From a virus, in UHGV virus genome UHGV-1297543: a stretch of 6,569 bases of DNA. One strand, written 5' to 3'. The translations under genes were made by a program, and so were the position numbers. Below the pieces are notes generated by a model that saw only the letters and a list, made by a program, of their open reading frames with translations, made no database searches and was not told the origin of the DNA. Below are positions 1 to 6,569 of the stretch, piece after piece; position 1 is the first letter of the stretch, and every line of letters begins with the position of its first letter.

Positions 1-36
1 TACTAGACTTTCGCGAATAGTTGGAGGTATACCCCT

Positions 37-1449
37 ATGTCTGTTATAAGGTTCAATAAAATTTTTCTATCGAGTTTTCTGTTGGTATTTGTTCTTTTAT
101 TTCCTTTGACTGCTTTTGCAATGGTCGCTACTCCTTCCGATGCTGTCAAGGTTCCGGTTGCCTCGTCAAATGAAGCAGAAATAATTCAATCGGATAATGT
201 TTCGGTTGCTACTTCAAGTAATGCATTCCCCTCTGAGGAATACATGGAAACAGACGACTTTGACATATTGGATGCTCCTGCTTTACTTTCTTCTGGAATT
301 GGTGATTTAGATAATACTATTGATTATTCCGGGGTCACATTTGTTTTAAATTATCATGATATGTCAGGAAAAGTTCATAGGCCGGAATACAAGTTGAATT
401 CTGATGGTTACTTTAGTGTTGCCCGTCCTGCTGATTGTGCTGATATTATGTGGATTGGCTTTAAGTTTAAAAAAGCGTCTCTTCCATCTTCTGGCAAGTA
501 TGCTATGCGTGTACGTTTTGGATGTAATACAGGAGTAACTTATCAAGATTATGGTTATGAACTGCAATTATATAGTGAATATACAAATGTTAAAGTTGAA
601 GGTGTATCGAGTACTCCTTACTTTGACCAATCATCCGGTGATTTATATTTTTCTCAGACCATTCAATTAAGTGGCAGTACATATGTTGTATTTGCTTATC
701 GTCCTACAAGTAGTCTGAATGATTTTTTTCCTTATGGTGGGTATTTGGATGTCAATTTTGAACGGCTTTCTTCTTCTGCTAACGTCAATGTTACCACTCC
801 TGGCGCTGGTGATGTTTCTTCCTCAGATATCCAGCAGGACATATCTTCCAACACGGCCCAGCAGGTGGAACAAGGCGACACAATAATTGAGCTTATCAAG
901 AACACAATACAGACTATCTCCTCTCAGCTTACATCCTTCTGGAATCAGCTTGCTGGTGAGTTTACCAACCTTTATAACAAAATGAACCAGCAACACCAGG
1001 AAAGCATAGATAAAGTGGATGAGCAAATAGATAATGATAACTCCAATACAGATAAGGTTACTACTGCTATTGAGTCCCATGGAAATTTTATCATTGAGGG
1101 TTTGAAGAAACTTTTCATTCCCTCGGATGAATATTTTAAGGCTTATTTTGATGACCTCTATAGTTGGTTCAGTGAAAGGTTTGGGTTTCTCTCCTTCCCT
1201 ATTGATTTACTATTAGAGGTCATTGATATTTTTGTTAATTCATCCCAGACAGACTGTGTGTTGGTACTCCCCTCTTTCACTATCATGGAAAATCTGCTCT
1301 GGCCTGAGATGTCCTTTAATCTAACTGAATTTTTAAATACAAATTTTTCTTTTGTCGTTGTTGCGATTAAGACTGTAACAAGTATCTATTTGGTAATGGC
1401 ATTTGTGCAGTTATGTGAGGAAAAATGGAATGAGGTGATGATGAATTGA
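37..1449 (+). CDS. Large secreted, membrane-anchored virion protein; putative pIII-like adsorption/minor coat protein
   Basis: 470-aa ORF. GGAGG (24-28) sits 8 nt before the ATG. N-terminal signal peptide (MSVIRFNKIFLSSFLLVFVLLFPLTAFA, AxA cleavage). Ser/Thr/Gly-rich and Q-rich linker segments. C-terminal hydrophobic anchor (FSFVVVAIKTVTSIYLVMAFVQL). Its stop overlaps the start of a small hydrophobic ORF, matching the gIII then gVI order of Ff phages. The function is inferred from architecture only. Confidence 0.45.
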   Translation: MSVIRFNKIFLSSFLLVFVLLFPLTAFAMVATPSDAVKVPVASSNEAEIIQSDNVSVATSSNAFPSEEYMETDDFDILDAPALLSSGIGDLDNTIDYSGVTFVLNYHDMSGKVHRPEYKLNSDGYFSVARPADCADIMWIGFKFKKASLPSSGKYAMRVRFGCNTGVTYQDYGYELQLYSEYTNVKVEGVSSTPYFDQSSGDLYFSQTIQLSGSTYVVFAYRPTSSLNDFFPYGGYLDVNFERLSSSANVNVTTPGAGDVSSSDIQQDISSNTAQQVEQGDTIIELIKNTIQTISSQLTSFWNQLAGEFTNLYNKMNQQHQESIDKVDEQIDNDNSNTDKVTTAIESHGNFIIEGLKKLFIPSDEYFKAYFDDLYSWFSERFGFLSFPIDLLLEVIDIFVNSSQTDCVLVLPSFTIMENLLWPEMSFNLTEFLNTNFSFVVVAIKTVTSIYLVMAFVQLCEEKWNEVMMN

Positions 1450-1727: not shown

Positions 1728-1769
1728 ATGGCTGCCGGAACCGCACCAGCGGTGCGGTCCGGTAGCCAT
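1728..1769. other. GC-rich stem-loop in the Rep-upstream intergenic region; candidate origin or packaging hairpin
   Basis: ATGGCTG-CCGGAACCGCACC-AGC-GGTGCGGTCCGG-TAGCCAT gives a ~19-bp stem with one bulged A, one G.T pair and an AGC loop. No T-run follows on the + strand, so it is unlikely to be a simple terminator. TTGACA (1773-1778) lies just downstream. Confidence 0.5.
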
Positions 1770-2695: not shown

Positions 2696-2760
2696 TGTAA
2701 CACATGTATCTTCCGGAGCCGGGCTGGCCGGGGAATTTCCTGCAGCAAAAATGTGTTACA
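2696..2760. repeat. Palindrome-flanked ~65-bp element, copy 1: TGTAACACAT, 45-bp GC-rich core, ATGTGTTACA
   Basis: A perfect 10-bp inverted repeat (2696-2705 and 2751-2760) encloses a CCGG/GGCC-rich core (ccggagccgggctggccgggg) that also contains GGAATTTCC and CCTGCAG. It ends 23 nt before the ATG at 2784. It is an inverted copy of the element at 6240-6304. Confidence 0.7.
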
Positions 2761-2783
2761 ATGAAATGAAAGGTGATGTGATT

Positions 2784-3122
2784 ATGAAAAGTGCTAAGAA
2801 TAATATACGTTCATTTAGGTATTCAGACAGAGTGGCGGAGATTCTGGAAGCAATGGAAGGTGATAGTTTGAACGCAAAGTTTGAGAATCTGGTACTCTTT
2901 TGTTATGACAGACTGCCAGAGGTAAAGTCTAAGTATGAATCCTATAAAAAGATGGCTGATAGGGAATGGAATGAGTTTATGGAACTGTCTGATTTGCGTG
3001 ATTCTATCAAGAGAGATTTAAACAACATTGATTCCCGTCTCCGGTCATTGGATGACCTTATGTCATATGTAGAGAGAAAGTGTAACATAATTGTTGATAA
3101 AAGAAAAGAGGGGAATCAATGA
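2784..3122 (+). CDS. Hypothetical charged, helical small protein (possible regulator)
   Basis: 112 aa if started at ATG 2784, which has an AAAGGTGA RBS. The ORF-track start at 2676 would run through the repeat element and lacks an RBS. A short N-terminal beta-strand then helix pattern (IRSFRYSDRVAEILEAM) is weakly RHH-like. The C-terminal half looks coiled-coil. No motif was recognised. Confidence 0.5.
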   Translation: MKSAKNNIRSFRYSDRVAEILEAMEGDSLNAKFENLVLFCYDRLPEVKSKYESYKKMADREWNEFMELSDLRDSIKRDLNNIDSRLRSLDDLMSYVERKCNIIVDKRKEGNQ

Positions 3123-3224
3123 TAAATAAAATATGGTTATGGCTTAACTCTCCCTGTCAACGGCAATATACGCATATTGAATTAGCCTTGCTTTGTATAC
3201 AGGTGTTGGCTTTTACGAATGCTA

Positions 3225-3305
3225 TCATTTTTTCTTTATTATGATTCCGATAATAGTTGCGATAATAAAGATGGCAATCCAAAAGTTTGGTGATTCAATA
3301 TTCAT
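3225..3305 (-). CDS. 26-aa hydrophobic peptide (MNIESPNFWIAIFIIATIIGIIIKKK); type I toxin-like or small membrane protein
   Basis: On the minus strand, AAGGAG sits ~6 nt upstream of the ATG (complement of 3303-3305). A single TM helix is followed by a KKK tail. It lies directly downstream of the RHH gene, after the hairpin. A longer 68-aa version (3225..3431) would overlap the RHH 3' end and lacks an RBS, so the short form is preferred. Confidence 0.35.
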   Translation of the reverse strand: MNIESPNFWIAIFIIATIIGIIIKKK

Positions 3306-3321
3306 GGTATTCTCCTTCCAG

Positions 3322-3349
3322 CGGAGCAGCGCGTACTGCTCCGTTTTTT
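3322..3349 (+). terminator. Intrinsic terminator closing the Rep-ORF2784 transcription unit
   Basis: An 8-bp GC-rich stem CGGAGCAG / CTGCTCCG with a 6-nt loop is followed by TTTTTT (3344-3349) on the + strand. It lies between the 3' ends of convergent genes. Confidence 0.5.
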
Positions 3350-3360
3350 CATGAGTTTCT

Positions 3361-3567
3361 TTAACCAGTCTTTGAGATAGATGACTTTTCCAGTTTACTC
3401 TTCTGCTTTGCCCGGGAATGTTGGGCTTCATAATTTTTAATATAATTATCTAATATGTGATGAATTTGTTCATTTGTACTTCTATGTTCTTCTTCTGCAA
3501 TCTCTTTTAATTTATCAATGGTTTCCTGTGGTAATCTGACAGTTAGTCTTGGTAAATTTGATGGCAT
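3361..3567 (-). CDS. Ribbon-helix-helix (Arc/CopG/MetJ-type) transcriptional repressor
   Basis: 68 aa with an AGAGGA RBS on the minus strand. Beta-strand RLTVRLP, then helix A (QETIDKLKEIAEEE), then helix B (STNEQIHHILDNYIKNY): the canonical RHH pattern. It is transcribed divergently from the structural genes, next to palindromic operators. Confidence 0.75.
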   Translation of the reverse strand: MPSNLPRLTVRLPQETIDKLKEIAEEEHRSTNEQIHHILDNYIKNYEAQHSRAKQKSKLEKSSISKTG

Positions 3568-3586
3568 AAAATTCCTCTTTCTTTTA

Positions 3587-3647
3587 TTGACAAAGTGACG
3601 TCACCTGTGATAGACTAAGTAACAAGAGGTGACGTCACTTTGTCACC
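3587..3647. promoter_or_regulatory. Divergent promoter/operator region with two perfect GTGACGTCAC palindromes
   Basis: GTGACGTCAC occurs at 3596-3605 and 3629-3638, centres 33 bp apart. These sit inside a longer 19-bp inverted repeat, TTGACAAAGTGACGTCACC / GGTGACGTCACTTTGTCAC (18 of 19 matching). A + strand TTGACA (3587-3592), N18, TAGACT (3611-3616) promoter-like pair overlaps the left palindrome. The region lies between the RHH start (3567) and the rightward gene block. Confidence 0.6.
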
Positions 3648-3942
3648 CATGATAGTGTGGTTGTTGTAGGTGCATTGGTAACCTTCCGAAAATCTGAGTC
3701 ATTCCGAATAGGTGTAGGGGTACAACTATTTTACCATGATTTCAGATTTTTGTACATACTGGCTGAGGAAACAGCTATCCGTGTAAGTCGGTATATCTGT
3801 TCGGTGTTTAAGAAGTCTCCGGCCGTGCCATATCAGCGGTAAAGTGGTATGGATGTTCTGGACACAATTCCAGAGGGGAGATATTTTCCTGTATCTCCTG
3901 TTAGATATTTGAATACTGGTTGAATGGTTAAGGAGGTATGTT

Positions 3943-4176
3943 ATGAAAGTACAGGGTGAATTTAAATTTTTAGGTGTTGAAAAAAGGCAGGGCTTCAAGG
4001 ACCCGTCCCAGACATTTTATGTCGCTGGCTTTGCTCAGGGATTGGATTCTCTTCGCTGCTATGTGGATGCGGAGGCATATGGCAGGTATTCCGGTATTGA
4101 ACCTTATTCCGATGTAATGGCGGAATTAGAATATAACCCGGTATCGGGTAAGGTTGCACTTGTGGGCATTAACTAG
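3943..4176 (+). CDS. Putative ssDNA-binding protein (gV-like)
   Basis: 77 aa with a strong AAGGAGG RBS. It sits immediately upstream of the major coat gene, as in Ff. LRCYVDAEAYGRY resembles the M13 gVp segment QLCYVDLGNEYP. The size fits gVp-family proteins (~80-120 aa). Similarity was judged by eye only. Confidence 0.45.
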   Translation: MKVQGEFKFLGVEKRQGFKDPSQTFYVAGFAQGLDSLRCYVDAEAYGRYSGIEPYSDVMAELEYNPVSGKVALVGIN

Positions 4177-4191
4177 AAAGGAGGATTTAAG

Positions 4192-4482
4192 GTGAAGTTG
4201 TATCAGTCTTTGAAAAAGTATGGCACTCTCCCGGTCGCTACTGGTCTTATGGCAGTTTCATCTTTTCCGGCTTTGGCATCCGAAGCTGGGGCCACTGTCA
4301 CATCCACGGACTGGGCGCCTATCATTTCAGCTATGACGGGTCAGATATCCGTGTCGACGGTAGTGGGTGTGATTGCTACAGCTATCGGTGCCGGCATCGG
4401 CCTGGTGTTCATGTGGTGGGGCGGTCGCAAGGCAGTCCGTACACTTATGTCAGCATTCCGTAAAGGTAAGGTGTCCATGTAG
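4192..4482 (+). CDS. Major coat protein precursor (gVIII-like)
   Basis: GTG start with an AAAGGAGG RBS 7 nt upstream. Signal peptide ending ALA. The mature ~67-aa protein has an acidic N-terminus (SEAGATVTSTD), a hydrophobic Gly/Ala/Ile core (VVGVIATAIGAGIGLVFMWW) and a basic C-terminus (RKAVRTLMSAFRKGK). This is the inovirus coat architecture. Confidence 0.75.
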   Translation: MKLYQSLKKYGTLPVATGLMAVSSFPALASEAGATVTSTDWAPIISAMTGQISVSTVVGVIATAIGAGIGLVFMWWGGRKAVRTLMSAFRKGKVSM

Positions 4483-4491
4483 CTCAGGGTT

Positions 4492-4520
4492 GGGGGTGGC
4501 GGTTGCCACTCCCTTTTTTT
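4492..4520 (+). terminator. Rho-independent terminator immediately after the coat gene
   Basis: GGGGGTGGC-GGTT-GCCACTCCC forms a ~9-bp stem with a 4-nt loop, followed by TTTTTTTATTT. It lies 10 nt after the coat gene stop and 15 nt before the pI-like start. This mirrors the central terminator after gVIII in Ff. Confidence 0.7.
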
Positions 4521-4534
4521 ATTTGGAGGTTGTC

Positions 4535-5203
4535 ATGTCTTTTAAATGGTATATGGGTTCCCTGGACATTGGGAATGTGTTTAAGGTCTGGAAGTATAAC
4601 AAGGAATTCCGTAAACAGCATCCTGAGTATTTTGACCCGGATGGGATTATCGTGTTCTGTGGGATGCAGGGTGCTGGTAAGACAATCAGTGCTGTCCAGT
4701 ATGTACAGAAACTTTGTGAACTGTATCCCCAGGTAAAGGTGTGCAGCAATATGGATTTGCGCCTCCCGGATGGCATTGAAGTATATCCCTGGGACGGTGT
4801 CCATTGCTTCACAGATATTAATAATGGTTATGCTGGTGTGATTTATCTGATTGATGAGATACATCTGGAATTCAATTCCCTGGAATCGAAAAAGATGGAC
4901 AGCAATATTTTTACGGTCGTCTCCCAGCAGCGTAAACAGCGGAAACATATTGTTGGTACATCCCAGGTATTCAGCCGAATTGCGAAACCTTTCCGGGAGC
5001 AGTTTCGCTATGCGGTCGCCTGTCGCACGGTGCTGCGGTGCATTCAAGTCAATGCGTTGATTGACGCGAAAAATGCCCGGGAGGTTGACGGCGAGGTCGT
5101 TGCCAGCAGTATCAAGCGGTTTTTTTGGTTCCACTCTCCTGCGCTTTATGATAGTTATGATACATATGCGGTGATGAATCGGTATCGCCAGGATTGGGGG
5201 TGA
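4535..5203 (+). CDS. Zot/pI-like P-loop NTPase (filamentous phage assembly protein)
   Basis: 222 aa starting at ATG 4535, with GGAGG 5 nt upstream. The ORF-track N-terminal extension from 4373 overlaps the coat gene and terminator and is rejected. Walker A FCGMQGAGKT near the N-terminus. Walker B VIYLIDEIH. The size fits the Zot N-terminal NTPase domain. Confidence 0.8.
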   Translation: MSFKWYMGSLDIGNVFKVWKYNKEFRKQHPEYFDPDGIIVFCGMQGAGKTISAVQYVQKLCELYPQVKVCSNMDLRLPDGIEVYPWDGVHCFTDINNGYAGVIYLIDEIHLEFNSLESKKMDSNIFTVVSQQRKQRKHIVGTSQVFSRIAKPFREQFRYAVACRTVLRCIQVNALIDAKNAREVDGEVVASSIKRFFWFHSPALYDSYDTYAVMNRYRQDWG

Positions 5204-5207
5204 TTGG

Positions 5208-5339
5208 ATGCAGGTTGCAATTGGATTATTTGCGGATGTGATTCGGGAAGCAATGCCCTATGCAATTGTGTTTGCTCTTGGCCAGCGGGTTGTTACATTG
5301 TTCCTTGGGATGGCCTTTAGAGGGGATGTACGCTTATGA
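5208..5339 (+). CDS. 43-aa hydrophobic protein (MQVAIGLFADVIREAMPYAIVFALGQRVVTLFLGMAFRGDVRL); possibly the detached TM module of pI
   Basis: Not in the ORF track because it is under 60 aa. ATG 5208 is 4 nt after the Zot stop, with GGGGGTGA upstream. Its stop TGA (5337-5339) overlaps the ATG (5336) of the next ORF as ATGA. One predicted TM helix. Confidence 0.35.
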   Translation: MQVAIGLFADVIREAMPYAIVFALGQRVVTLFLGMAFRGDVRL

Positions 5340-6148
5340 TGTGGAGGAGGATGTATTGTGTATTACTTTGTTTGGTTCTGTGTGCTTTATACTGTTTTCG
5401 GTCTTTTGCGGATGAGTATACGCTCACTGAGGAGGATTTTATGGCTCCTGAGGGATATCCTCAGGCTGAGACGAATGATGTAAATGGGTGGCTTTCCAGT
5501 GTTCCTGATGAGGATATGGACTTTGATCAGTACCAGCAGATAATGGAAATCTTGTATCCTGAGCTGGCGGAGGAGGATGAGGAAGATGAGGATGATATGG
5601 CTGATATTGAGGACGATGATGACATGGAAGATATTCCTGTTGCTTCTGGTTCTAATGCTCGCGTTGCTAGTGCTTCTAATGCTGGGCGCACAAAAAAGGC
5701 CCAGACGGTAGCGAATATTCTGACTGTGAATTCTCCTGTGGTCTATAGCTCGTATACGCCTTATGATTCGTCTATTTCCACCACAGTGATAACTTATATG
5801 TCGGATGTGCTTCCGAAGCTGGGAAACGTTCATTATGTGCTGTTCCGCCACGGACAGTATGCGTACCGTTTGGTTTATGCAAAGGATATGGTTTGTAATG
5901 GTACTACGTTCACGGCGGAGGATGCGCAATATATTGCCTATGATTCCCGGTATTATACTTGGTCAGCCGGTACGGAAGGTTCTTTTCGGCTCCAGGCGAA
6001 TAATTACATCGTATACAGTGACCTTGCGGAATATCCTATGCTCCAGAGTGAGGGAACATATTATTGGCTGATTATCTTCATTGCCGGGGTAGCATTCCTT
6101 TTTGTGATATACCGCTCTCTGTTCAGTCCTGGCCGTGTACGGATATGA
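5336..6148 (+). CDS. Secreted, C-terminally anchored protein with a poly-acidic tract; putative virion or assembly protein
   Basis: 270 aa; alternative in-frame starts at 5339 and 5351. Signal peptide (CVLLCLVLCALYCFRSFA). Acidic low-complexity stretch EEDEEDEDDMADIEDDDDMEDI (nt ~5570-5640). Tyr/Ser/Thr-rich, probably beta-rich domain. C-terminal TM (WLIIFIAGVAFLFVIY) with a basic tail. Confidence 0.6.
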   Translation: MMWRRMYCVLLCLVLCALYCFRSFADEYTLTEEDFMAPEGYPQAETNDVNGWLSSVPDEDMDFDQYQQIMEILYPELAEEDEEDEDDMADIEDDDDMEDIPVASGSNARVASASNAGRTKKAQTVANILTVNSPVVYSSYTPYDSSISTTVITYMSDVLPKLGNVHYVLFRHGQYAYRLVYAKDMVCNGTTFTAEDAQYIAYDSRYYTWSAGTEGSFRLQANNYIVYSDLAEYPMLQSEGTYYWLIIFIAGVAFLFVIYRSLFSPGRVRI

Positions 6149-6239
6149 TGGGACATCTTCATTTCCTTGTCCGCTGACAGTGCCAGGGGATTTATGGGTG
6201 CGAATCGTAATCGTTTTGTATATCTTCGTTTTGGATTTA

Positions 6240-6304
6240 TGTAACACATTTTCGCCTGCAGGTGATTCCAGGCCAGGCCGGAGCCAGCTGTGTCGTGTGT
6301 TACA
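6240..6304. repeat. Palindrome-flanked ~65-bp element, copy 2 (inverted relative to copy 1)
   Basis: TGTAACACAT (6240-6249), a 46-bp GC-rich core (cctgcagg...ccaggccaggccggagccag), then TGTGTTACA (6296-6304). The core aligns to the reverse complement of the copy-1 core at roughly 75% identity. The A-tract next to one arm is also conserved. It ends 23 nt before ATG 6328. Confidence 0.7.
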
Positions 6305-6327: not shown

Positions 6328-6558
6328 ATGCAGGTGGATTTTAATAAGACTGAACTGCTCTATCTGGACATATTGGCAACGGAAAAATTGGATATTATAA
6401 AACACCGTCATGAACGGGATAAAAGAATCTTTGACACTTTGGATATTGATATTCATGAGCGTATTGTTTTATATGAATCCCAGATTAAGGCATTCACTGA
6501 TATACATAACAAGATAGTTTCTGCGGTTGGTTCCTTGAGTTTGGACCCTACTGTTTAG
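6328..6558 (+). CDS. Hypothetical small helical protein
   Basis: 76 aa starting at ATG 6328, with an AAAGGAGGG RBS. The ORF-track start at 6262 lies inside the repeat element. Charged, probably helical; no motif recognised. Confidence 0.5.
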   Translation: MQVDFNKTELLYLDILATEKLDIIKHRHERDKRIFDTLDIDIHERIVLYESQIKAFTDIHNKIVSAVGSLSLDPTV

Positions 6559-6569
6559 TGCTTACTGAT

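Follow-up and report, generated by a model that had tools for sequence, protein, structure and literature searches.

The window analysed here is the whole 6,569-nt stretch of the viral genome UHGV-1297543, a complete inovirus of ~6.5 kb whose prophage form is found in Enterocloster and whose closest database relatives are gut Inovirus sequences. Two 65-bp intergenic elements with palindromic ends, A (2696–2760) and B (6240–6304), lie in it in mutually inverted orientation; no strand is assigned to either. Element A follows the gene of the rolling-circle Rep protein (1822–2649, + strand; PF23343, phrog_3419), whose stop codon is 47 nt before it, and ends 23 nt before the start of ORF2784 (open reading frame at 2784–3122, + strand, 112 aa). 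The stop codon of an ORF at 5336–6148 precedes element B by 92 nt, and B ends 23 nt before the start of ORF6328 (6328–6558, + strand, 76 aa). A and B are members of a large, apparently undescribed family in filamentous phages of gut Clostridia: more than 100 genomes and prophages of inoviruses from Oscillospiraceae and Lachnospiraceae contain ~230 copies of the same element, one to seven per genome and in either orientation.

The arms of A are 10 nt long (TGTAACACAT and ATGTGTTACA) and enclose a 45-bp GC-rich core. The arms of B, also a member of the 65-bp class, are 9 nt long (TGTAACACA and TGTGTTACA), the tenth pair being broken by a right arm that reads GTGTGTTACA rather than ATGTGTTACA. 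Each arm contains an 8-mer that is invariant in the family: the left box GTAACACA is found at 2697–2704 in A and at 6241–6248 in B, and the right box TGTGTTAC at 2752–2759 in A and at 6296–6303 in B (all without assigned strand). The perfect 9-mer arm occurs at four sites in the whole window, all of which are arms of A and B. Recomputation from the sequence bore out most of what the first-pass annotation of this DNA had described, namely two inverted 65-nt palindrome-ended copies, each ending exactly 23 nt before an ATG preceded by a Shine-Dalgarno sequence (2784 and 6328), with CCTGCAG and CCGGAGCC common to both copies, GGAAT in A and its complement in B. The cores are GC-rich in an AT-rich genome, as had also been noted (G+C of 0.57 in A and 0.64 in B against a window profile generally of 0.3–0.5). 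The identity of about 75% that had been given for the reverse-complemented cores is slightly high, since the ungapped alignment of the reverse complement of A with B has 43 of 65 identical positions (66%), 24 of them among the 45 of the core. The inverted relation itself stands: 24 matches were reached by 1 of 20,000 core shuffles, and 8 of the 45 core positions agree when the copies are compared without inversion. The sequence of A is identical in 14 of the 16 related assemblies covering its position and that of B in all nine, and the core of B is 88% identical to an element upstream of the ORF2784 homologue in the relative L064.

The wider family was found by scanning IMG/VR for the arms at variable spacing, followed by a degenerate scan of the contigs retrieved. 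Many small inovirus-like contigs with several copies each were returned by the first scan, and two to six copies per genome by the second. Host genomes were scanned in GTDB, with one genome per species. Among the matches listed there, GC-rich elements of 54, 55 or 65 bp come overwhelmingly from Oscillospiraceae (Oscillibacter, Faecousia, Dysosmobacter, Marasmitruncus, Intestinimonas and other genera) and form clusters of two to seven per 8 kb beside Zot, Rep or IS30 genes, which places them in inovirus prophages. Prophages that carry the element can usually be recognised as inoviruses by their genes (Zot, Rep, IS30 or ORF2784 homologues). Together, the Oscillospiraceae and the Enterocloster phage lineage extend the element family over two families of Clostridia. 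The first-pass annotation had suggested a search of related genomes and metagenomes and had considered that the element might turn out to be a chance similarity or a common host repeat. The element proved strongly conserved in relatives, and the GTDB matches listed give no sign of a general host repeat beyond inovirus prophages. Full-text literature searches with the arm sequences, and for inoviruses, IS30 and intergenic repeats, returned no description of it. The IS30-bound 'IScream' phages are tailed phages and represent a separate system (PMC12823448).

Each element is built from two invariant boxes of 8 bp, (Y)GTAACACA and TGTGTTAC(R), which are inverted with respect to each other and stand at quantised distances on either side of a spacer rich in G+C and in palindromes. 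Three exact sizes are found, 54, 55 and 65 bp, corresponding to inner lengths of 52, 53 and 63 from GTAACACA through TGTGTTAC plus the outer Y and R bases. These inner lengths were counted 42, 24 and 42 times in viral contigs and 68, 36 and 52 times in genome contigs, and any other inner length at most 10 times. The family signature can be written as YGTAACACA, 36, 37 or 47 nt, TGTGTTACR. From arm centre to arm centre the distance is 44, 45 or 55 bp (4.2, 4.3 or 5.2 helical turns), which puts the two boxes in the same rotational phase whatever the size class. Among 227 non-redundant copies both 8-mers are perfect in 186, a single mismatch is present in 39, and a compensatory double change in none (the arm variant GTCACACA is present in L128). 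The inverted repeat reaches 9 bp in 132 of 207 elements, the outer base being T in 76% and C in 19% of copies. Solitary arms occur near chance level (35 observed, 24 expected). The 186 perfect copies, the lack of compensatory changes and the near-chance number of solitary arms argue that the arms are sequence-specific boxes and not a generic stem.

The cores average 60% G+C. GCAGC or GCTGC is present in 172 of 230 cores (25 expected), CAGCTG, CTGCAG, GATC, CCGG and CCAGG are also enriched, and 6-bp palindromes number 355 against an expected 145. In the 65-bp class GATC stands at the exact centre, often embedded in a local palindrome. In one set of orthologous elements, core identity is 81–92% even though the neighbouring genes can be recognised as related only from their protein sequences. 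Relative to the Zot-coding strand, a moderate strand bias was observed, GCTGC outnumbering GCAGC in 42 elements and the reverse holding in 20 (p = 0.007; 26 versus 7 in the 65-bp class). Core orientation judged by motif or by position weight matrix was too noisy to set any rule for neighbouring elements.

All elements are strictly intergenic and tightly packed between genes. The TAA within the left box GTAACACA is a stop codon in many relatives; at least one arm TAA terminates an ORF of at least 60 codons in 118 of 207 elements, and 32% of arms are used in this way compared with 12.6% of random TAA triplets. Where the downstream gene is close, its start often follows 11–30 nt after the element, although gaps up to 89 nt are seen. 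The 23-nt gap, which had been singled out as a property of both copies, is not a general feature: in relatives the element lies 12–39 nt upstream of the ORF2784 homologue, and other downstream starts vary more. The two gaps of the window fit the tight gene packing, yet do not represent a conserved number. Nor do A and B form a special pair bracketing the core module, as had been thought, since relatives hold one to seven copies at varied positions and in varied orientations. Some copies are arranged in tandem, and both orientations are represented (three E53 copies in L134; pairs in L133, L060 and L215). In several relatives with a Rep_trans-type rep gene, the order is rep, ORF2784-like gene, element.

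Because the arms form a perfect inverted repeat, the same closing stem 5'-GTAACACA...TGTGTTAC-3' would arise from an element in either orientation. The elements could act as single-strand hairpins, either on the (+) single-stranded DNA (ssDNA) as a minus-strand origin or packaging signal, or on mRNA as a processing or stabilising structure similar to repetitive extragenic palindromic (REP) elements or the RNase III sites of T7. Such a role is regarded as unlikely. It is favoured by the folding of A and B as ssDNA, which on both strands is better than that of dinucleotide shuffles (z from -2.2 to -3.7). In the 65-bp class the mean z is -0.9, with 24–27% of copies below -1.64, and the central GATC often lies in a local palindrome. 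The strand bias given above points in the same direction, as does the intergenic, intra-operon location at gene 3' ends, which resembles that of REP elements and T7 R sites. However, only the arm stem of 8–10 bp is predicted consistently, the centroid structure of A being this stem alone at about -5 kcal/mol. Pairing diagonals computed over ungapped class alignments revealed no conserved interior pairing beyond the arms. Compared with dinucleotide shuffles, the cores of the three classes have mean z values of -0.15, -0.5 and -0.9, those of the 54- and 55-bp classes folding like shuffles. Arm changes are never compensatory (0 versus 39 uncompensated), and a purely structural role would leave the invariant arm sequence and the exact loop lengths unexplained. 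One to seven copies in mixed orientation are unlike a single origin or packaging signal, and the Rep families differ among carrier phages. A conserved hairpin was rejected as a candidate on the absence of pairing beyond the arms and the near-zero core z values of the two shorter classes. A shared Rep nick site was considered unlikely too, the carriers using at least two unrelated Rep families (PF23343 and Rep_trans). From the first-pass proposal of a hairpin origin or packaging signal the arm stem survives, as predicted on folding as ssDNA; a conserved core structure does not, copy number and orientation vary, and the proposal as a whole is weakly favoured.

Known RNA signals were looked for at the same sites. 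No U-tract or T-run follows A or B, which means that they are not intrinsic terminators, and the intrinsic terminator scan of the window matched at 3320–3345 and 4492–4513 and at neither element. The covariance models of Rfam 15 gave no match at E <= 1 on either strand. T7 RNase III sites are likewise conserved structured elements of ~60 nt between genes of long polycistronic phage transcripts. Their two stems and internal loop form a defined structure and their orientation is uniform, whereas the elements described here show no conserved structure beyond an 8-bp stem and come in both orientations. REP elements and bacterial interspersed mosaic elements (BIMEs) of enterobacteria are similarly short (35–65 nt), palindromic, multi-copy and extragenic, often found at gene 3' ends or inside operons, in either orientation and sometimes in tandem, with one end sequence conserved. 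REPs, however, are chromosomal, number hundreds per genome, form a well-paired stem-loop and are mobilised by REP-associated tyrosine transposases (RAYT; Y1 HUH). The elements in question are confined to small ssDNA phages with one to seven copies, have exact sizes and are conserved in their 8-bp arms alone. Thus the extragenic position, the multiple copies and the gene-end location are shared with REPs, while a conserved stem-loop is absent and protein scans of the window revealed no RAYT or other Y1 transposase.

A protein partner of the elements is suggested by the gene that abuts A. Homologues of ORF2784 were detected by a single tblastn query in 52 of 108 element-bearing loci, and by a hidden Markov model (HMM) of the N-terminal part in 44 of 63 loci with at least two elements. 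The stop codon of this gene lies inside an element arm in 40 of 47 cases; otherwise an element is situated 14–39 nt upstream. When the protein was taken as the starting point, all 13 viral contigs encoding it had already been recovered by the element-pattern scans. In metagenomes an element was found within 3 kb in 52 of 58 loci and directly adjacent in 48 of 58. The six loci without an element comprise one match cut at a contig end and the five most distant homologues. Protein-first sampling removes the ascertainment bias from this association, and the linkage between gene and element is tight.

The ORF2784 product, which is 100% identical to a hypothetical protein of Enterocloster, is a candidate element-binding protein with a ribbon-helix-helix (RHH)-like N-terminus and one long predicted helix. 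Its N-terminal ~40 residues are nearly invariant across phages of the two host families (KNNIRSFRYSDRVAEILExxEGxSLNxKFENLV), among them N7, R9, S10, R12, S14, D15, G26 and K32, and are followed by a variable coiled coil. The invariant protein N-terminus mirrors the invariant 8-bp boxes. In the AlphaFold2 monomer (mean predicted local distance difference test score, pLDDT, of 90), short N-terminal helices precede one helix of 82 residues (29–110). A beta-alpha-turn(G-x-S-x-N)-alpha pattern and the invariant N, R and S residues align with Arc and Mnt in the expected register, so that an RHH fold could be assumed for the family. From the sequence evidence the ORF2784 product, and not the Arc-type RHH protein or the ORF6328 product, is the likely binder. 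The Arc-type protein is set aside because a perfect 19-bp inverted repeat of its own lies directly upstream of its gene. ORF6328, which shows no comparable adjacency to elements, is an unlikely source of the binder, being lineage-specific: its homologues occur in 5 of 108 element-bearing loci, namely the window lineage and its closest relatives only, and profile searches returned no family match for it.

The reading preferred here, to which a probability of roughly 0.4 is given, is that the elements are double-stranded DNA binding sites for the ORF2784-family protein at module boundaries. The sites would act on the double-stranded replicative or prophage form. One dimer of the protein could occupy each 8-bp box, its Arc/Mnt-like N-terminal segment reading the DNA, and the coiled coil could bridge the dimers on both boxes. 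We infer that the bound complex might mark module boundaries and modulate read-through as a regulator of the boundary or roadblock type. Such a role is considered most likely because the elements stand at gene and module boundaries within long same-strand operons. At A the result would be autoregulation of ORF2784 downstream of rep. At B the complex would gate transcriptional read-through: out of the structural operon into ORF6328 and, where the genome is circular, further into the genes for adsorption and rep. Perfect arms that persist in lineages without the transposase discussed below (the window, L062 and L064) support this assignment. Paired operators for a shared regulator had been among the roles suggested in the first-pass annotation. 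This is the best-fitting of them, since the ORF2784 gene abuts elements family-wide; the ORF6328 product, also listed there for a binding test, fell away with the lineage restriction of its gene.

RHH operators provide the nearest regulatory likeness. Those of P22 Arc and Mnt, the plasmid omega heptads and the TraM sbm sites of F are also short boxes read by a beta-ribbon, with the gene of the protein adjacent and with several sites per replicon controlling several operons. In RHH systems a helical C-terminal domain builds dimers of dimers. The boxes of these operators abut or are one to two helical turns apart and overlap promoters, whereas the boxes described here are 44–55 bp apart across a spacer of conserved length, lie at gene ends and not over recognisable promoters, and belong with an RHH fold that is only predicted.

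Several observations weigh against the assignment of the elements to the ORF2784 protein. The hhalign match to Arc/Mnt is not significant (E = 0.15–0.18), searches of ORF2784 against Pfam, PDB-sequence and NCBIfam profiles return only coiled-coil noise, and Foldseek comparison of the AlphaFold2 monomer with the PDB was uninformative. The conserved and enriched core motifs (GCAGC, GATC, CAGCTG) are unexplained by binding to the arms only. A promoter scan found no promoter-like + strand site at A or B, so classic operator-over-promoter repression is not evident. No ORF2784 homologue could be detected in some element-bearing contigs, such as L025 and L041 (the latter with five elements); most contigs of this kind are incomplete or broken beside the IS30 gene. 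The ORF2784-like gene could also be one of several element-bounded cassettes, the IS30 gene being flanked likewise. Finally, the length of the coiled coil does not track the size class of the element (C-terminal parts of 84 aa with 65 bp, 87–90 aa with 54 bp, 96 aa with 55 bp and 104–112 aa with 65 bp), and with this the simplest, rigid-ruler version of bridging fails and was rejected. Separately, by-eye likenesses of the arms to consensus sequences of sigma-54 promoters, CcpA cre, the DnaA box, parS, LexA and dif sites were partial or had the wrong spacing and were dropped.

The integration of the phage bears on a further group of proposals. The whole window aligns as a prophage in Enterocloster contigs, for example at 98% identity with L232:7213-13775; lysogens include the Enterocloster strains of GCA_020555685.1 and GCA_020559295.1. 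The prophage is bounded by a 21-bp direct repeat ACTAGACTTTCGCGAATAGTT (L233:7277-7298 and 13788-13809; window 2–22), and the prophage-host junctions fall at window 2–22 and just past 6569, at least ~265 nt from B. In L016, a circular form with 99-nt terminal repeats, the window end is joined directly to the window start. From this join and the attachment (att) repeat at the ends it follows that the window represents the entire genome, opened at attP, and from the position of the attachment core that A and B are not attP. The ACTAGACTTTCGCGAATAGTT att core is a quasi-palindrome around CGCG (window 1–22 and 6558–6569), and a third, degenerate copy lies ~470 bp further on (L233:14255-14280). In several genomes a second inovirus (Rep_trans and Zot) is found in tandem at the same attachment site. 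Scans of the window proteins detected no integrase or recombinase gene, which implies a host recombinase for integration.

The first-pass annotation had nevertheless offered A and B as recombination sites, either as Xer-type attP arms in the manner of CTXphi or as crossovers that invert the 3.5-kb segment 2761–6239 or flip the 45-bp cores. The inverted arrangement of A and B, the lack of an integrase encoded by the phage and the tandem prophage arrays, like those of dif-integrating inoviruses, would agree with this. Against it, junctions in a CTXphi-type Xer attP lie within the site, and here both they and ACTAGACTTTCGCGAATAGTT are at the window ends, joined to each other in L016. All eight assemblies spanning A to B give a single collinear alignment at 96.8–98.3% identity, A and B being unchanged (100% identity), and the orientation of A is uniform across 15 of 15; this is judged from assemblies, which minority inverted forms could escape. 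An inverton would be expected in both orientations and with a recombinase; no inversion was seen in this phage and no recombinase gene in the window. A 45-bp invertible core would also be far shorter than the invertons known to us. Both the attP and the inversion proposals are contradicted for this phage, and a role of A and B as recombination sites is considered extremely improbable.

The other gene regularly associated with the element encodes an IS30-family DDE transposase (~1.1 kb, HTH_38 and rve domains), homologues of which occur in 50 of 108 element-bearing loci. In every mapped case this gene is flanked by elements on both sides; examples from Oscillospiraceae inoviruses are L003:5793-6857, L037:342-1451, L060:711-1727, L043:401-1450, L092:1797-2825 and L041:5923-6921. 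The order ORF2784-like gene, element, IS30 gene, element is recurrent. There is no room for separate inverted repeats around the IS30 gene, and no separate insertion-sequence ends are visible. Upstream of it, between two 54-bp elements, a conserved stretch of ~210 nt without an ORF in any frame was observed (L041:7021-7232, L034:5383-5593, L158:1198-1408), which could be a small RNA or a regulatory region.

The elements may be boundaries of cassettes linked to the IS30-family transposase, or units similar to miniature inverted-repeat transposable elements (MITEs), an explanation that is possible but on the whole rather unlikely. The arms would then be the recognition ends of the transposase, and the elements non-autonomous mobile units or joints at which genes such as those of the ORF2784-like protein and the transposase pass from phage to phage; the window phage would have kept them after loss of the transposase, with the ORF2784 protein as an accessory factor. 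Besides the flanking of the IS30 gene, the arms read TGT...ACA, the typical pattern of DDE transposon tips, and the tandem copies in both orientations listed above would fit as well. A mosaic junction was found exactly at an element edge, L041 being homologous to L047, L158 and L107 on the left and unrelated to them on the right. Of 101 element pairs with similar cores, 26 cease to resemble each other within 80 nt on at least one side, and in two prophages an element lies 43–55 nt inside one att end.

These two prophages deserve description in their own right. Marasmitruncus massiliensis NZ_FYDE01000005 (1904001-1920000) carries an inovirus prophage of ~8.4 kb with six elements. It is flanked by a 70-bp direct repeat, 94% identical (L154:6853-6922 and L175:7212-7281), which contains a promoter-like sequence and sits directly upstream of a tyrosine-recombinase gene; a 65-bp element is located 43 nt inside the left repeat. 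In L153+L151 (CAYYLZ010000016.1) an IS30-bearing prophage is apparently bounded by DnaA-box-like AGTTCTCCACAT motifs, with three copies on the right. Its bounds in the joined sequence are ~1220 and 9740–9790, and a 65-bp element lies ~55 nt inside the right end. As to the ends of IS30-bearing prophages, L044 is an excised slice of the same contig of a metagenome-assembled genome, and terminal repeats were found only in L016.

Several features are difficult to reconcile with transposition. No target-site duplications were found at any offset, flanking 2–4-mer direct identity being at or near chance for offsets 0–3. Half elements and solitary arms are absent from prophage ends. Cores within the same genome are strongly diverged and arms invariant, the opposite of what recently transposed copies would show. 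There is no apparent spread into host chromosomes outside inovirus prophages, and four diverged lineages of Lachnospiraceae phages have perfect arms and no transposase. An inverted repeat of 8–9 bp is short for an IS30-family end. The inference of mobility from cases with the same core and different flanks was rejected, because the clearest of them proved to be orthologous positions by protein comparison. MITEs and the terminal inverted repeats (TIRs) of IS30 elements thus share with the family the TGT...ACA terminal inverted repeats (perfect in 186 of 227 copies), the small size, the non-coding character, both orientations and the position beside an IS30 gene. The elements differ from MITEs in having no target-site duplications, arms of 8–9 bp and diverged cores, in apparently not spreading into the host and in being kept without a transposase. 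The IS30 genes, as potential autonomous partners of a MITE, are flanked by whole elements, and no insertion footprints were found, nor host-chromosome copies among the matches listed.

A more specific form of this explanation, which appears quite improbable, would see in the elements the joints of a cassette system that belongs to filamentous ssDNA phages themselves. The ORF2784-like and IS30 genes, among others, would be packaged as units between TGTGTTAC...GTAACACA ends, and the transposase would swap these units from one phage genome to another at the fixed-length spacers with the RHH-like coiled-coil protein as an accessory. Such a system might be a functional analogue of integron cassettes operating by DDE chemistry. 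Integron attC sites (59-base elements) are comparable in size (~55–65 bp), in conservation limited to inverted ends with AAC...GTT and in a cassette-like layout, in which an ORF often has its stop codon within the left end and the following ORF starts a few nt past the right end. The arm sequences ATGTAAC and GTTACAT match RYYYAAC and GTTRRRY at 6 of 7 positions each, the third position being G or C instead of Y or R. However, attC requires a bottom strand that folds into an almost completely paired structure with extrahelical bases, a single orientation and the IntI tyrosine recombinase, whereas the elements show no pairing beyond the 8-bp arms and occur in mixed orientations, and the window encodes no recombinase.

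Neisseria provides one more comparison. The dRS3 repeats, Neisseria intergenic mosaic elements (NIMEs) and Correia elements also place short inverted-repeat boxes around variable segments of 50–150 bp in intergenic mosaics, and the system is linked biologically to filamentous phages and to an integrase of the transposase type. Those repeats lie in the host chromosome, where the phage uses them as attB, whereas the present elements are phage-borne and are not the att site of the window phage. From each of the REP, attC, dRS3/NIME, RHH-operator and MITE systems the element is separated by at least one defining feature that is either absent or not established for it. We rate the elements as a phage-borne family of palindrome-ended intergenic repeats or operators.

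The remaining features of the window concern its other genes. The Arc-type RHH repressor is encoded on the - strand (3361–3567), and the coat protein (4192–4482) and the Zot-like assembly ATPase (4535–5203) follow. Between the repressor gene and the structural operon, the perfect 19-bp inverted repeat TGACAAAGTGACGTCACCT (3588–3606 and 3627–3645) overlaps the promoter-like sequence TTGACA-18-TAGACT; judging by this arrangement, it is probably the operator and promoter switch of the Arc-type repressor. Both intrinsic terminators mentioned above are canonical and on the + strand. The one at 3320–3345 comes after the ORF2784 region, and the one at 4492–4513, right behind the coat gene, is probably an attenuator ahead of the Zot-like gene. 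In the 100-nt gap directly before rep, an imperfect GC-rich hairpin of ~19 bp, ATGGCTGCCGGAACCGCACC AGC GGTGCGGTCCGGTAGCCAT (window 1728–1769), is followed by TTGACA and represents a candidate origin, terminator or rep control element. A putative adsorption protein of 470 aa has a mosaic N-terminal part: window 103–1002 is 95% identical to L064:8074-7175 despite the otherwise distant relation to that phage, and window 167–849 is replaced in the relatives L016, L230 and L233, which are 97–98% identical. This mosaicism suggests a recent exchange of a host-range module.

To our knowledge, Gram-positive gut inoviruses are experimentally almost uncharacterised, and their origins, packaging signals and regulatory circuits are not known. 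The element supplies a searchable signature that marks an inovirus clade of Oscillospiraceae and Lachnospiraceae and connects it with a single small conserved protein and, for many of its members, with an IS30-family transposase. In practice the signature helps to delimit inovirus prophages and modules in gut metagenomes. If the elements do act as a gene-exchange cassette system, they would represent a new mechanism of gene exchange in ssDNA phages. If the pairing of the ORF2784-family protein with these sites is true, it would be the first regulatory or architectural module for these phages, with an unusual recognition geometry: two boxes in fixed phase, separated by four to five helical turns.

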